DNA of 64,000 nt from an uncultured Syntrophomonadaceae bacterium (GCA_964389365.1 CAYMDO010000002.1:19268-83267); one strand, 5' to 3'. Counted from the stretch's first letter, positions 4,522-55,036 are shown. Translations and numbers: made by a program. The notes: generated by a model not told the origin, from the letters alone.

Positions 4522-4597
4522 GGGCCCATAGCTCAGCTGGTAGAGCTACCGGCTCATAACCGGTTGGTCCTAGGTTCGAGTCCTAGTGGGCCCACCA
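4522..4597 (+). tRNA. tRNA-Met (anticodon CAT; elongator or Ile-lysidine type), CCA encoded
   Basis: Cloverleaf GGGCCCAUAGCUCAGCUGGUAGAGC ... anticodon loop CUCAUAA ... GGUUCGAGUCC ... CCA. Confidence 0.85.
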
Positions 4598-14993: not shown

Positions 14994-16519
14994 ATGACTG
15001 TAACCATCGATGGGAAAAGCCTTACCCTGGAACAGGTTGTCAGGGTGGCCAGGTATAACGAAGATGTTGAACTGGCAGAAACAGCTTATGACTGCATCAA
15101 TCGCTCGCGGGAGCTGGTTGAGCGGATCGTGGCGGAAAAGCGTTCGGTTTACGGTGTTAATACCGGTTTTGGCCTGCTCAGCAATGTTTCTATCACCGAC
15201 GAGGAGATCAATTAGCTCCAGTACAACCTGGTTGTCAGCTGCGTGGCTGGTGTTGGCGAACCGTTCCCGGAAGAAGTGGTACGGGCGATGCTTTTTTTGC
15301 GTTCCAACTCGCTGTCCTCCGGCTGCTCAGGGGTCAGGCCGATCATTGTTGAAACGATGCTGGCCATGCTCAGCAAGGGAGTCCACCCCGTGGTGCCGCA
15401 AAAAGGTTCAGTCGGCGCCAGCGGTGATTTAGCCCCCCTGGCGCACCTGGCGCTGGTGCTCATCGGACGCGGTGAAGCCCTGTATAAAGGGCGTTTGGTG
15501 CCGGGCGGAGAGGCTATGAAACAGGCCGGGATCGAACCCGTTGTGTTAAAGGCGAAGGAAGGCCTTTCCCTTTGCAACGGAACCCAGGCGATGACCGCAG
15601 CCGGCGCTCTCGCTGTTTACGATGCTTTAAAGATGGCACGCTACGCGGATCTCTTTGGCGCGCTTTCGGCAGAGGCACTGGAGGCAGTGTTGATGGCGTA
15701 CGATCCAAAAATCCATGCTGTCAGGCCTCACCCGGGCCAGATCGAAACCGCCGCCAACCTCAGGGAAATGTTAAGGGGCAGTGAGATCCTGGCCCACCCA
15801 TCGTCAAGCCGGGTTCAGGATGCCTACTCGCTGCGCTGCATGCCCCAGGTGCACGGGGCTTCCAAGGATGCCATCGACTATGTGAAGCAGGTAATCGAAA
15901 GAGAAATTAATTCGGTTACCGATAACCCGCTGGTCTTCGCCGATACCGGCGAGGTGCTTTCCGGGGGCAATTTTCACGGCCAGCCGGTAGCCCTGGCCCT
16001 CGATTTCTGGCTATTGCCCTCGCCGAGCTGGCCAATATTTCGCAGCTCAGGGTTGAAAGGCTGACCAACCCGGCGCTGAGCATGGGGCTGCCTGCTTTCC
16101 TGATCGAAAAAAGCGGGTTGAACGACGGCTTCATGGTTGCCCAGTATACCGCCGCCGCCTTAGTCAGCGAAAACAAGATTCTGGCCCATCCGGCAAGCGT
16201 GGATTCCATTCCCACATCGGCTGACCAGGAAGATCACGTCAGCATGGGTACCACGGCGGCCCGCAAATGCCGCGAAGTGCTGGAGAACCTGCGCTATGTC
16301 CTGGCTATCGAAGCTATCTGTGCCTGCCAGGGGATCGACCTCAGAAAGAAAAAGCCGTCACCCGTGCTGCAAAAAGCCTGCCGTATAATCAGGGAGAGGG
16401 TCAGCTTTATGGCGGCGGACCGGGAAATGAGCAAAGATTTTGAGGCGGTGGTAGCGTTGATTAAGGATGATGCCTTTAATATTGCAAATTTGCTGGGCGG
16501 GCTTGCGGGTAAGGTGTGA
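14994..16519 (+). pseudogene. hutH: histidine ammonia-lyase with an in-frame TAG at 15213-15215 (Gln position) and a 1-nt deletion frameshift near 16006
   Basis: Three ORF pieces cover full-length HutH, including the MIO motif [22 protein letters not shown] aligns to canonical EEQLEQLQLNLV. The frame switch is at [16 protein letters not shown]. Confidence 0.8.
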
Positions 16520-50182: not shown

Positions 50183-51073
50183 ATGAAGGTTTTAATGTGT
50201 GTACCGAATATCAGCGAAGGCAAAAACCTGGCGCTAATCGAAAACATAGCCTTGGCAATAAAAGAGACCGGTCAGGTCAAACTGCTTGAGGTTGCTTCAG
50301 ACAAAGATCATAACCGCTCAGTATTCGGTTACTTAGGCGGTCCGGCGGCTGTGCTGGAGGCGACAAAAAAGCTAACCGAACTGGCGCTGGAAGGTATTGA
50401 CATGAGAGCGCACCATGGCGATCACCCCCGGATGGGCGCGGTGGACGTGGTGCCGTTTATCCCGATAAAAGATATCAGCAGCGAAGAAGCCCTGCTGGCA
50501 GCTGCCGAATTCGGAGATTATCTGGGCGGGAAAGGGGTACCGGTCTATTTTTACGAGGATGCGGCTTCGAAAGCCGAACGTAAAAGCCTGGCTGATATCC
50601 GCAAAGGCCAGTACGAAGCGCTGGAAGAAAAGCTGAAAGATGAAAGGTGGAAGCCTGACCGCGGGCCGGCCCTGTTTCACCCAAAAGCGGGGGCAACTGC
50701 CGTCGGGGTAAGGTTTCCCCTGATTGCCTTTAACGTTAACCTTAACACTGCCAATATGGAGGTAGCCGATAAGATTGCCAGGAGCGTCCGCCACTTAAGC
50801 GGCGGCTACCGTTACGTGAGGGCTATCGGGGTTAACCTGGCCGAGCTGGGCCAGGTCCAGGTGTCAATGAACCTGACCAATTATTCAAAGACCCCGATCC
50901 ACCGTGTGTTGGAAACAATACGCTCGGAGGCGGCAAGATACGGGGTAACTGTAGCGGCAACGGAGTTTGTCGGGCCGGTACCTTTTAATGCCCTGGAAGA
51001 ACTGGTTCGTTTTTACCTGCAGGCCCATAGTTTTACCGCGGGCCAGGTTATTGAAATGAACCTGCTTGACTGA
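50183..51073 (+). CDS. ftcD: glutamate formimidoyltransferase (formiminotransferase domain)
   Basis: MKVLMCVPNISEGKN N-terminus typical of FtcD; about 296 aa. Confidence 0.75.
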   Translation: MKVLMCVPNISEGKNLALIENIALAIKETGQVKLLEVASDKDHNRSVFGYLGGPAAVLEATKKLTELALEGIDMRAHHGDHPRMGAVDVVPFIPIKDISSEEALLAAAEFGDYLGGKGVPVYFYEDAASKAERKSLADIRKGQYEALEEKLKDERWKPDRGPALFHPKAGATAVGVRFPLIAFNVNLNTANMEVADKIARSVRHLSGGYRYVRAIGVNLAELGQVQVSMNLTNYSKTPIHRVLETIRSEAARYGVTVAATEFVGPVPFNALEELVRFYLQAHSFTAGQVIEMNLLD

Positions 51074-51193
51074 CTTATATGCCGCCAGGTTATTTTTTGG
51101 TGGGAAGAAGTTCGAAGCGCCAAATCTTCATTGATCGCGCGGTTCTTTACATCTGCAGAAAAAGACGTTATAATGATGAGGCGAAAAAGAACA

Positions 51194-51269
51194 GGGGCGA
51201 ATAGCTCAGCGGGGGAGCACCTGCCTTACAAGCAGGGGGCCGTAGGTTCAAATCCTACTTCGCCCACCA
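51194..51269 (+). tRNA. tRNA-Val (anticodon TAC), CCA encoded
   Basis: GGGGCGAAUAGCUCAGCGGGGGAGCA ... anticodon loop CUUACAA ... GGUUCAAAUCC ... CCA. Confidence 0.85.
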
Positions 51270-51285
51270 TTGAAACACGATAAAT

Positions 51286-51320
51286 AAAGGGCTTTAGGGC
51301 CCTTTATTTATTTTTTATTT
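51286..51320 (+). terminator. rho-independent terminator after tRNA-Val
   Basis: AAAGGGC-tttagg-GCCCTTT hairpin then a T-rich run. Confidence 0.6.
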
Positions 51321-51321
51321 G

Positions 51322-51560
51322 GTGCGCCCGGCATGGGCGTTAGCTTGGCGGTGAAAGTCCGCTGTGGGCTTGGCAGTGGGAACCACTAGCTGACGGCAAG
51401 GGTGTCCGCCGTGAGGCGGAATCTGAAGGAAGCCTAAGGCAAAATCCCGGCCCGATGAACAAGAACCGCATACAAGGCTGAACAGGGGTGGACGAGTTTG
51501 CCAAACAAAACGAAGTCCGACACTGCCCGGCGGGTTGCTTGATTATGCTATAAAAGTCAA
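51322..51560 (+). mobile_element. group II intron 5' fragment (domain I start), apparently truncated
   Basis: Begins GTGCGCCCGGCATGGGCGTTAGC immediately after the terminator T-run. This is near-identical in pattern to the Ll.LtrB 5' end GTGCGCCCAGATAGGGTGTTAAG. No domain V or intact RT ORF was found downstream. Confidence 0.5.
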
Positions 51561-51919
51561 AGCTACTGTCAGAAAAAAAGTGTTGTTTGAAATTGACCTC
51601 TTAATGGAAGGCGCTTTTAAAAGCGAAACCCTGGGTAAAGAGGATTTTAAAAATATGGTTGAAATAAATGGTTTAATTACTTTATCCCATATTTCTCGCG
51701 CTTATATTATTAGTGTAACAGCGCAATCAGGAATCAATCCGCCGGTCAGAGTGCCAATGCTAAATATCAATAAGCTGATTGGGCAGAAGAAAACGAATTA
51801 CAAGAGCTAAGATAAGTTTTTACATGGGCCGGCGATTGCTGATTGCATGCAAAGTTAAGCATAAAGAAACCGGGCACGACCAGACTCTTAAGTATTCGGC
51901 ATCGGTGAACATCTCCTCT

Positions 51920-52050
51920 TAAAATACTACCAAAGGCATAAAGGTGTCCACCAAACTGGGTCATGTCCGCAACGAGGTTGAAAGCGCCTTCGGCGCAACA
52001 AAAAGATGTTACGGGTTAAACCTGATTAGGCTTTCGTTCAGAAAGCCCTA
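51920..52050 (+). pseudogene. DDE transposase C-terminal remnant
   Basis: Frame translation ...TKLGHVRNEVESAFGATKRCYGLNLIRLSFRKP* matches the C-terminal R..VE..F...K...GL...R motif of IS4/IS5/IS1182-type transposases. The surrounding ~1 kb lacks intact ORFs. Confidence 0.35.
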
Positions 52051-52496
52051 ATTATTTAAGTTCTTTCTTAAAATGCTCGGCCACCTCTTACAGCATGCGT
52101 AAAGATTTTGCAACCGTTTCTTCCCCGTCGAAATTAACCAGGCAACAGCGGGCCAGGACATCCAGAGAGAGCACATCCAGTTCTAATTAATGGCTTCTTC
52201 CACATCGGTGTGGGGCATTATGCCCATGGCCGTTGTTTGGCAGTTCTCTTCCAGCTTCAAGTAAGATCACCCCGGTTCATTTAATTGGCAAACAGTTCTC
52301 GATCGGCGGTAAAAGAACCTGCCTCAAAATAATCGTTCTGATTGCCTTAATGAAACGGATATGATACTTTTGGGTTGTTAATACAACAATCTTGCGTTAA
52401 AAAAACGGTATAAAACCGGTTAAGCCCTGCTATTTCCATCACATGCCGTTTTTTGGCAGCCAGGTGTAAAAAATAACTGAAGTTCAGAGGGTTGAA

Positions 52497-53417
52497 ATGA
52501 AAACCAGTTTTGCGCTGCTGTTGCTGCTTATCTTGCTGCCGGTTGTTATGGCAGGCTGCAATAGTGCAGAAAAACCGGATATTTATGCTGACGAACCGAT
52601 CAGAATCGTAACCACAATCTTCCCCCTGGCCGATTTGATCGGAAAGTTGGGCGGCGACCAGGTTGAAGTCAGCTACCTGCTTCCAAGCGGGGCCAGCCCT
52701 CATACTTTCGAACCAACAACCGAGCAGGCTCGCCTGGTTGCCAAAGCGAGGCTGTTTGTTTATATCGGGGCCGGCCTCGATAATTGGGCGGTAGAATTGA
52801 CGAAAACCGGAAACAAAGATCTGGCAGTCATGGAACTGGCCGGTCTTGTAACCCTAGCTGAAGGTTATGGCTGTAACAATCAGGATCATGACCACGAAGC
52901 GGGAGCCGATCCCCATTTTTGGCTTGACCCCATCCTGGTCAGCAGTCAGCTGCTGCCGGGTATTTATGACCAGCTGTGCCTGATTGCGCCTGAGAAACGG
53001 CCTTTATTCCGTGAAAACCTGATCAACATGCAAGCGGAGCTGACCGTTTTGAACCGGGAAATTGAAGTTCAGCTTGGAGCCTCTGGCAGGAAGGATTTTA
53101 TTGCATTCCATTCTGCCTGGCACTATTTTGCTGCCCGATACGGATTAAATGAGCTGGCGGTGATAGCCTCTTTTCCGGGGCAGGAGCCCTCGGCCGGCTG
53201 GATTGCTGAACTGATCAATATCGTCAGGGAAAATGATGTGGGGGCAATCCTGGTTGAACCGCAGTTTTCTCAACAACTGGCCACCGCTGTTGCTGCTGAA
53301 ACGGGGATCAAGGTGCTAACAGTGGATCCGCTCGGTGGGGAGGACCTGCCCGGCCGGGATTCATATCTAAACCTGATGCGCTATAACATGAAAATATTCA
53401 GTGAAGCCCTGCAGTAA
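52497..53417 (+). CDS. metal (Zn/Mn) ABC transporter substrate-binding lipoprotein, ZnuA/TroA family
   Basis: Lipobox LPVVMAGC and a His/Asp-rich loop QDHDHEAGADPHFWLDP. Confidence 0.75.
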   Translation: MKTSFALLLLLILLPVVMAGCNSAEKPDIYADEPIRIVTTIFPLADLIGKLGGDQVEVSYLLPSGASPHTFEPTTEQARLVAKARLFVYIGAGLDNWAVELTKTGNKDLAVMELAGLVTLAEGYGCNNQDHDHEAGADPHFWLDPILVSSQLLPGIYDQLCLIAPEKRPLFRENLINMQAELTVLNREIEVQLGASGRKDFIAFHSAWHYFAARYGLNELAVIASFPGQEPSAGWIAELINIVRENDVGAILVEPQFSQQLATAVAAETGIKVLTVDPLGGEDLPGRDSYLNLMRYNMKIFSEALQ

Positions 53418-53436
53418 AAAAAGAGAGGTTTTATTT

Positions 53437-54204
53437 GTGGAGCCGGTGATCAGCAGTCAAAACCTGGCGGTCAGGCTGGGGGGCAAAAAGGTCCTTGAGG
53501 ATATATCATTTGTTGTTAATCCGGGGCAGTTGGCAGGAATCATCGGCCCGAACGGGGCCGGGAAAACAACCCTGCTCAGGGCGATCCTGGGCCTGGTTCC
53601 GATCAGCGCCGGAGAGCTGGCAGTGCTGGGGTATCCGGCAGGCCGGATCAACAGCCAGCGGGGCAGGATTGGTTATATGCCTCAGCGCCTGTTGTTTGAA
53701 AGGCATTTCCCCCTTTCGGTTGGCGATGCGGTGGCCGCCGGGTTATTAACCCGTTCAACAATTATGAAACGGATCGGGGACATTGATCAAAAGGTAATGG
53801 CAGCCCTGACTTTTGTTGGCATGGAACAGTACCGCCTGTGCCCGTTCCAGGAACTTTCAGGCGGCCAGCAGCAGCGGGTTTTATTGGCCCGCTCTTTGGC
53901 ACGGAAACCGGAGCTGCTGCTACTGGATGAACCCAATGCCGGCCTTGATTTTCCATCCCAGAAGAAGTTTATTGACCTGCTGCAGCAGCTGCGTCAACGG
54001 CATAACCTGACAGTAATAATGGTTTCGCATGACCTGGTATCGGTTGCTGCGATTGCTGACTCACTGATTTGCATAGATCGCCGGATGCACCTTCACGGCA
54101 AACCCGGCGAGGTGCTGCACAGCCATGAACTGCTTGATGCTTATCGTTGTGAATTTGACTACTTAAGCATTGCTTTTCGGCAGGGGGAGGGAAAAAATGA
54201 GTGA
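53437..54204 (+). CDS. metal ABC transporter ATP-binding protein (ZnuC-like)
   Basis: GPNGAGKTT, LSGGQQQRV and LLLDEPNAGLD motifs. GTG start after an AGAGAGG RBS. Confidence 0.8.
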   Translation: MEPVISSQNLAVRLGGKKVLEDISFVVNPGQLAGIIGPNGAGKTTLLRAILGLVPISAGELAVLGYPAGRINSQRGRIGYMPQRLLFERHFPLSVGDAVAAGLLTRSTIMKRIGDIDQKVMAALTFVGMEQYRLCPFQELSGGQQQRVLLARSLARKPELLLLDEPNAGLDFPSQKKFIDLLQQLRQRHNLTVIMVSHDLVSVAAIADSLICIDRRMHLHGKPGEVLHSHELLDAYRCEFDYLSIAFRQGEGKNE

Positions 54205-55036
54205 GCTTTTCTCCTACGGTTTCATGCTTCGCGCCCTGGCCGCCGCTGTTTTAGTCGGTTTGATCTGTTCGTTTCTCTCTTTTTTCGTGGTTTTAAAAAG
54301 GCTTTCCTTTTTGGGAGCCGGAATATCCCATATTGCTCTGGGCGGGATGGCTATCGGCCTGGTTACAGGTATAAACCCCGTTATAACCGGTTCTGCCTTT
54401 GCAGTTGGTGCAGCGGTTTCAACGGGTTACATCAGTAAAATTGTTAAAGCAAGCGAAGATACGATTATCGGGATCTTATATGCCTTTGGCATGGCTTTGG
54501 GGATAGCCCTGATCAGCACCTTTAAAGGTTACTATCCCGAGCTGTTTTCGCTGCTTTTCGGCAATATCCTGTCTGTGTCAAATCAGGATCTATTATTGAT
54601 CGCTTCAGCCGGTGCCGTAATTATCCTTTTTTTGCTGTTGTTTTTTAAGGAGCTGCTGGCGATCTGCTTTGATGAGGAGATGTCTTTTTCCGGCGGCCTG
54701 CCAGTCAACCTGCTTTACATGGGCCTGCTGGCAGCAATCGGCTTAGCGGTGATGATTTCAGTTCAACTGGCAGGTGTTGTCCTTGTTGCTGCGCTGGTTG
54801 TAATTCCCGGTGCCGCCGGTTTCCGCCTTTGCACCAATTACCGGGGCATGCTTGCCTTATCGCTGGCCACAGGGTTATCCGGCAGCCTGGGCGGGCTGCT
54901 AATATCCTACTATTATCCAATCCCGCCGGGAGCAGCGATTGTCCTGCTGATGACCGCGCTGTATATCCTGGCTCTGGTTATAAGGCCGTTTCTTTATAAG
55001 ATGCGCAGCGAAGGCGAGGTAAACGAGGATTATTAA
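54197..55036 (+). CDS. metal ABC transporter permease (ZnuB-like)
   Basis: About 280 aa polytopic, in an operon with the preceding two genes. Confidence 0.75.
   Translation: MSELFSYGFMLRALAAAVLVGLICSFLSFFVVLKRLSFLGAGISHIALGGMAIGLVTGINPVITGSAFAVGAAVSTGYISKIVKASEDTIIGILYAFGMALGIALISTFKGYYPELFSLLFGNILSVSNQDLLLIASAGAVIILFLLLFFKELLAICFDEEMSFSGGLPVNLLYMGLLAAIGLAVMISVQLAGVVLVAALVVIPGAAGFRLCTNYRGMLALSLATGLSGSLGGLLISYYYPIPPGAAIVLLMTALYILALVIRPFLYKMRSEGEVNEDY

Follow-up and report, generated by a model that had tools for sequence, protein, structure and literature searches.

A truncated class IIC group II intron joined to a SecB-like gene fragment behind a tRNA-Val terminator in an uncultured Syntrophomonadaceae bacterium

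The closest described relatives of the element reported here are the bacterial group II introns B.h.I1 of Bacillus halodurans, O.i.I1 of Oceanobacillus iheyensis and GsI-IIC of Geobacillus stearothermophilus. Class IIC introns insert 3–11 nt after a stem-loop, need only 3–4 bp of IBS1–EBS1 pairing in addition to that stem-loop, and carry an 11-nt bulge with AGGAA that is unique to the class (PMC1702495). For O.i.I1, the 5′-exon analogue, which ends in UGUUAU, is complementary to EBS1 (PMC4748821). Truncated group II copies have been catalogued in bacterial genomes by the Zimmerly laboratory (PMC4424553, PMC4028801), and other mobile DNA often surrounds bacterial introns (PMC4424553).

We analysed a stretch of 64,000 nt from an uncultured Syntrophomonadaceae bacterium (GCA_964389365.1, CAYMDO010000002.1:19268-83267), referred to below as the window, with all coordinates counted from its first base. 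On the plus strand, at 51322–51529, lies the 5′ stub of a group IIC intron, the first 208 nt of domain I, which was recognized by its GTGCG start, by Rfam and by homologous copies elsewhere. The stub resembles B.h.I1, O.i.I1 and GsI-IIC in its GUGYG start, in its AGGAA bulge, in a putative EBS1-type loop that can pair with the 5′ exon over 4 bp, and in its insertion close to a terminator. It differs from all three in that the window holds no domain I closing strands, no domains II–VI and no reverse transcriptase (RT), and it is a relic only. Like the catalogued truncated copies, it is truncated and inactivated and lies among accessory-gene fragments, outside housekeeping genes; it stands out from them only by having retained its 5′ end rather than its 3′ end. 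The locus as a whole is a decayed mobile-element mosaic of 729 nt (51322–52050), ordinary genomic debris that contains no working element, and its significance beyond correct annotation is small.

The stub sits behind a tRNA gene. ARAGORN placed tRNA-Val with anticodon TAC at 51195–51269 (+), where the Rfam tRNA model scored 73.1 bits. Upstream of it is a promoter-like site, TTTACA-17-TATAAT (51146–51174, +), that matches 11 of 12 consensus positions, and the interval 51144–51269 is conserved in three relatives (L022, L030 and L031). The intrinsic terminator of the tRNA gene is a hairpin at 51279–51312 (+) with 15 pairs in the terminator scan and a folding energy of −18.6 kcal/mol in RNAfold; its T-rich tail reaches 51321. 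This hairpin is the target stem-loop used by the intron. A first-pass annotation had drawn the element from 51286 to 52050. Its left limit falls within the terminator hairpin, the intron starting only at 51322; its right limit was well placed, being the edge of the foreign block, and homology to the orthologous locus in L022 resumes at 52051. The Rfam scans also returned two sub-threshold ‘Plastid-ycf2’ matches (4522–4595 and 51195–51267, both on the minus strand), which are antisense to tRNA genes and were rejected as tRNA-shaped artefacts, and a c-di-GMP-II riboswitch match (15456–15535, +) that is probably due to chance (21.9 bits against a gathering score of 53.5; E = 4.7).

The intron sequence opens with GTGCGCCCGGCATGGGCGTTAGC at 51322, and its GTGCG (51322–51326) agrees with the GUGYG consensus for the 5′ boundary. 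The Rfam model group-II-D1D4-3 (RF02001) matched 51405–51588 with 89.2 bits (E = 1e-16). When the scan was limited to 51300–51529, the match at 51405–51529 scored 102.9 bits (E = 2e-22) and was cut at its 3′ side, covering model positions 1–123 of 170. Because the score climbs when the sequence is cut at 51529, the final third of the longer match is a forced alignment to non-intron DNA. Fuller relatives reached 141–159 bits with D1D4-3 and also matched D1D4-1 and, in some cases, Intron_gpII; L013, L016 and L021 possess domain V (Intron_gpII).

Copies for comparison came from an exact-pattern scan of GTDB genomes with a 23-mer, which gave 11 loci in four Bacillota metagenome-assembled genomes (MAGs), and from a metagenome scan with an internal 26-mer, which gave 9 further loci, making 20 copies in total. 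The closest copies, L015 and L017, are identical to the stub at 196 of its 208 bases (94%) with no indels, and blastn of the stub against L015, an independent copy of the intron, gave E = 3e-92. Homology started at 51322 in every one of the 20 loci, bar a few chance T-run bases upstream. These matches uphold the earlier proposal of a group II intron 5′ fragment behind the tRNA-Val terminator. The brevity of the GUGYG consensus, and nothing more, would favour a coincidental GTGCG start within some other structured RNA or random sequence; the Rfam match, the blastn match and the boundary lying exactly at GTGCG in 20 loci refute this idea, to which we assign practically no probability. The intergenic RNA-family match should be labelled a truncated IIC intron relic.

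At the other end, homology stopped at 51529/51530 in all nine copies that are long enough to reach this point. Intact copies go on with AACCCC...GTATATGCGGCGGGTAGATGGGAGGAAAG...CTTACCCGGGGAGG, the closing 3′ strands of the domain I helices. The window lacks these strands, which leaves its domain I incomplete. The first-pass annotation had proposed a scan with the Rfam group-II-D1D4 and domain V models. This gave the D1D4-3 match described above; for domain V and the intron 3′ end, no Intron_gpII match appeared at 50900–55000 (E ≤ 10) or in the whole 64-kb window (E ≤ 5). Neither an RT-like ORF nor a Pfam match was found downstream of the stub, and blastn detected no second intron copy within the window. 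The earlier statement that no domain V, 3′ end or RT/maturase follows was therefore borne out by the Rfam scans and the ORF and Pfam searches. The 765 nt then given to the intron shrink to 208, which end within domain I and not after domains I–IV. Judged by these alignments, the stub is 208 nt long and broken inside domain I. It is an inert relic, unable to fold as a ribozyme, to splice or to move.

The preservation of these 208 nt, with 94% identity to L015 and no indels, would also suit a functional piece of a group II intron that is ORF-less or split (trans-splicing), with its second half at another place. Split introns are known to break in domain IV, but the break here is inside domain I, and the strands that would close its helices are missing. 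The 64-kb window contains neither domain V nor any further piece of an intron; the stub runs directly into a truncated protein-gene fragment, is preceded by a terminator and lacks a promoter. We regard a split intron as extremely unlikely and the stub as a broken remnant.

The stub belongs to a lineage of bacterial group II introns of class IIC (class C). At all 18 distinct insertion sites of the lineage, a strong hairpin ends 0–9 nt upstream of the intron, and the 50 nt upstream have a mean minimum free energy of −26.1 kcal/mol versus −12.5 kcal/mol for controls, which were random 50-mers drawn from the same loci (Mann–Whitney, p = 2e-9). In the window, the hairpin at 51279–51312 ends 9 nt ahead of the intron. 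An 11-nt bulge of the IIC type with AGGAA, AUCUGAAGGAA (51421–51431, +; epsilon-prime region), is invariant in our alignment of the copies (A1). For class C, the RT evidence is that of relatives with 79–94% identity over the stub and not of the window. The full RT of one of them (L021, 79%) has RVT_1 and GIIM domains only and no endonuclease domain. Its best PDB match, over the full length, is the GsI-IIC RT (E = 2e-143), other IIC RTs are also among the best, and LtrA, a IIA protein, reached only E = 1.5e-38.

The Rfam consensus structure places an 8-nt hairpin loop, GCCAAACA, at 51500–51507 (+), and this loop is invariant in the relatives. It contains a putative EBS1, CAAA (51502–51505), that is complementary to TTTG (51318–51321, +), the four bases at the end of the 5′ exon that make up the putative IBS1. 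We infer this CAAA–TTTG assignment by homology to the EBS1 loop of O.i.I1. The 5′ exons of five other copies with the same loop (L004, L014, L016, L018 and L021) likewise end in TTTG. Insertion sites, RT, AGGAA bulge and putative EBS1/IBS1 all support the view, already taken in the first-pass annotation, that this is an intron of the IIC kind inserted just past a terminator hairpin. The likeness to Ll.LtrB that had been noted there extends to the generic 5′ stem and no further; the RT of a relative is nearest to that of GsI-IIC. This genome, or a recent ancestor of it, hosted an active IIC lineage, one with a wide distribution among anaerobic Bacillota.

Still shorter 5′ stubs of this lineage follow hairpins in other Bacillota MAGs (L003, about 27 nt; L008, about 42 nt; L004, about 100 nt; L012, about 45 nt), that of L008 directly after a cluster of five tRNA genes. 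In L012, the stub is joined straight to the start of the RT ORF (LMERVVARENMLAALRRVEQNQGAA). The finding of these short stubs probably reflects ascertainment bias, because the search patterns came from the 5′ part of the intron: such DNA patterns retrieve only copies that retain the 5′ end, and multicopy full-length introns also break assemblies. Seven contigs of the Symbiobacterium sp. MAG DYFB01 (L002, L005–L007 and L009–L011) end 38–140 nt from the intron 5′ end, mostly at 131–140 nt. The intron is therefore multicopy in DYFB01 and fragments its k141 assembly.

Fused to the intron break is the 3′ part of a gene for a SecB-like chaperone, which the first-pass annotation had missed; it is this gene, and not an insertion sequence (IS), that adjoins the intron. 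Positions 51531–51873 (+) share 89% DNA identity with L024 (1994–2338) and comprise codons 56–149, with the stop at 51808–51810, followed by 63 nt of native 3′ flank. The encoded protein is 92% identical to residues 56–142 of P0001 (149 aa; E = 8e-43), a protein that carries Pfam PF02556, and it matches the NCBIfam SecB model at profile positions 67–146 of 160 (E = 9e-5). Full-length SecB-like homologues have about 149 aa; the window retains the last 94 codons, and the first 55 are gone. The intact gene in L024 lies 3 nt behind an HTH_3/Xre-type gene and is clustered with HicB and HEPN genes, a setting that resembles toxin–antitoxin–chaperone (TAC) modules, whereas the fragment in the window has no partner genes and forms no module. 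There is no SecB-like gene at this site in the relatives L022, L030 and L031. The 91-aa ORF at 51535–51810 is probably mis-annotated as a gene and should not be called one.

Comparison of the window with L015 and L024 placed the junction between intron and SecB-like DNA at 51530–51535 (+), ambiguous over about 6 nt (GCGGGT). The two sides share a short CGG/GCGGG overlap, and just upstream of the junction is an imperfect similarity, GAAGTC...CGG. IIC RTs are proficient at template switching, and the 5′ junction of the stub is an authentic retrohoming junction. On these grounds, the junction between nt 208 and the SecB-like gene could be ascribed to reverse transcription during abortive retrohoming rather than to DNA deletion: a reverse-spliced intron RNA would have been broken, and cDNA synthesis on it would have been primed by microhomology or have switched templates. 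Only the 5′ part of the broken intron RNA would then have been copied, from a microhomology-annealed end of foreign DNA or cDNA. The junction, perhaps together with the stubs of L003, L004, L008 and L012, would be a scar of abortive IIC retrohoming, and group II integration would occasionally capture or rearrange unrelated genomic sequence. However, the SecB-like fragment begins in mid-gene and ends at no recognizable transcript end, and two further, unrelated junctions at 51873/4 and 52050/1, with the deletions in the neighbouring gene, show that plain DNA deletion acts here. Microhomology is equally expected from illegitimate recombination, and nothing in the data requires an RNA intermediate. 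We consider an origin of this junction by reverse transcription very unlikely, by either route, and hold the same low opinion of the wider idea that the stubs are retrohoming scars and of partial copying from an annealed end. Synthesis of cDNA during retrohoming begins at the intron 3′ end, and incomplete reverse transcription can for this reason not leave a stub with a 5′ end. The natural explanation is therefore that the rest was lost as DNA.

The remainder of the foreign block, 177 nt at 51874–52050 (+), contains an IS5-like peptide motif (51968–52045) and a small hairpin (52029–52047), and the hints of IS5 that it gives are weak. The segment had no DNA or translated match in the fetched loci, the rest of the window or a plasmid collection (blastn and tblastx). 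The peptide, RNEVESAFGATKRCYGLNLIRLSFRK (51968–52045), matched two NCBIfam IS5 models at C-terminal profile positions with E = 0.018 and 0.18, the former at 14 bits against a cutoff of 275. It is identical at 15 of 26 positions to residues 428–453 of one 495-aa annotated IS5 transposase, and it resembles the C-terminal motif RNxVExxFGxxKRxYGLxLIR of IS5-family transposases; unlike in these, a DDE catalytic region and terminal repeats are lacking, and homology does not reach statistical significance. Pfam gave no match to the peptide, and tblastn against plasmids gave matches only at E ≥ 1. A word-indexed search of 5.8 billion proteins produced no candidates, and an exhaustive phmmer search of 1.84 billion protein representatives produced none at E ≤ 0.001. 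Neither IS terminal repeats nor other IS DNA were found, and no second copy of the IS-like segment occurs in the window or the fetched loci. The chances that 51968–52045 is a genuine IS5 relic are roughly even; if it is, the relic is truncated at both sides. What had been described as the C-terminal motif of a DDE transposase amounts to a 26-residue likeness without significance at database scale; the 35-aa ‘transposase’ ORF does not merit annotation as a gene.

In the account given by the first-pass annotation, an IS landed in or beside the intron, an adjacent deletion mediated by the IS removed the rest, and the transposase tail is the scar. The 26-residue stretch does resemble the IS5 C-terminal motif, with two NCBIfam IS5 models matching at the right profile position; bacterial introns are often ringed by other mobile DNA (PMC4424553); and in one copy of the lineage (L019), an rve-type transposase-like ORF lies directly 3′ of the intron RT ORF. 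Yet the resemblance is not significant at database scale, and no terminal repeats or other DNA of an IS accompany it. The break is joined to the SecB-like fragment, with 340 nt of non-IS DNA between the break and the motif, and the putative relic has lost both of its own ends. We find this account unlikely, although it deserves more weight than any of the other alternatives. That the intron is dead, with no domain V, 3′ end or RT, stands; that IS activity disrupted it stays conjecture, because the transposase tail fails to reach significance at database scale, and no junction abuts a recognizable IS end.

Relatives of the locus revealed its ancestral state. In L022, whose FtcD is 83% identical, FtcD is followed in turn by a metallophosphoesterase gene, by tRNA-Val and a terminator, by a spacer of about 130 nt, by a convergent gene of 338 aa, and by ZnuA. 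Homology between the window and L022 stops at the tRNA end (51269) and resumes exactly at 52051. L030 and L031 have the same tRNA and the window's own hairpin, with homology to about 51310, and are intron-free. Because they keep the hairpin without the intron, the terminator is ancestral and the intron is an insertion. Downstream of the terminator, L030 (4105 onward) and L031 (8027 onward) carry methyltransferase and ion-channel genes, whereas the 338-aa gene and ZnuA follow in L022 and the window. The 3′ flank of tRNA-Val is thus a synteny breakpoint that varies among relatives, and a deletion-prone stretch.

Decay extends into the neighbouring gene. Patches of blastn homology to L022 and tblastn with the L022 protein identified a relic of the 338-aa gene, which is intact in L022, at 52051–52260 (−). 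Residues 1–25, about 222–235 and 307–338 are left, with an internal stop (52058–52260). One deletion in this relic appears to join two ‘AR’ codon pairs. On the other side of the tRNA, the metallophosphoesterase gene (284–309 aa) lies between FtcD and tRNA-Val in L022 (6950–7879), L030 (3031–3885) and L031 (6951–7805); it is absent from the window, in which the corresponding interval is 51073–51195, and tblastn detected no remnant of it.

Retrohoming of a class IIC intron, followed by deletional decay to inert debris, is the best explanation of the locus, and we hold it to be highly probable. The intron would have retrohomed behind the tRNA-Val terminator by means of the stem-loop and the TTTG–CAAA pairing. 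Other accessory DNA would then have arrived, namely a chaperone module and perhaps an IS. Later deletions would have removed everything 3′ of intron nt 208, including the closing strands of domain I, domains II–VI and the RT gene, and the same decay would have taken the native downstream spacer and eaten into the neighbouring 338-aa gene. The remainder would be the stub fused to the SecB-like fragment, plus 177 nt that may hold a 26-codon relic of an IS5 transposase. The orthologous loci in L022, L030, L031 and L034 showed only intron-free sites or a contig end and no intermediate states; because no relative was found with an intermediate at this site, for example a full-length intron or a chaperone module still intact, we only infer the order and number of these events, as well as the mechanism of deletion.

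Public assemblies offered one further view of the locus. Among public contigs, the ZnuA gene next to the locus occurs on a single one, a Logan contig of the same organism from SRR11582139 (L001). It matches the window with 100% identity, and its first base corresponds to window position 51500, exactly 30 nt short of the point at which the intron is truncated. The Logan assembly pipeline presumably uses k = 31; if so, L001 starts at the place where a de Bruijn branch would arise from another sequence that has the intron in common up to 51529 and diverges beyond it, which would suggest that the sample also contains a fuller copy of the intron. Fuller copies, if present in that sample, could fragment assemblies.

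Several longer copies of the lineage are themselves rearranged. The RT ORFs of L014 (from 508) and L018 (from 4097, oriented) both break after ...NLGIPK and then continue with a similar non-RT sequence, LLSYY.SSQF.LGMF.Y.PIKY, which suggests that the two may share an insertion or rearrangement inside the RT gene. In L019, an integrase/rve-like ORF follows the RT ORF from 1796 onward, with no domain V reaching the gathering score, and the 3′ end of this intron may be interrupted by an IS. In L013 (oriented, about 1–780), only about 460 nt separate the D1D4-3 match from domain V, the whole measuring about 700 nt, and no more than a 123-aa RT remnant is left; this copy has the look of a nearly ORF-less derivative in which internal sequence was deleted while both ribozyme ends were kept.
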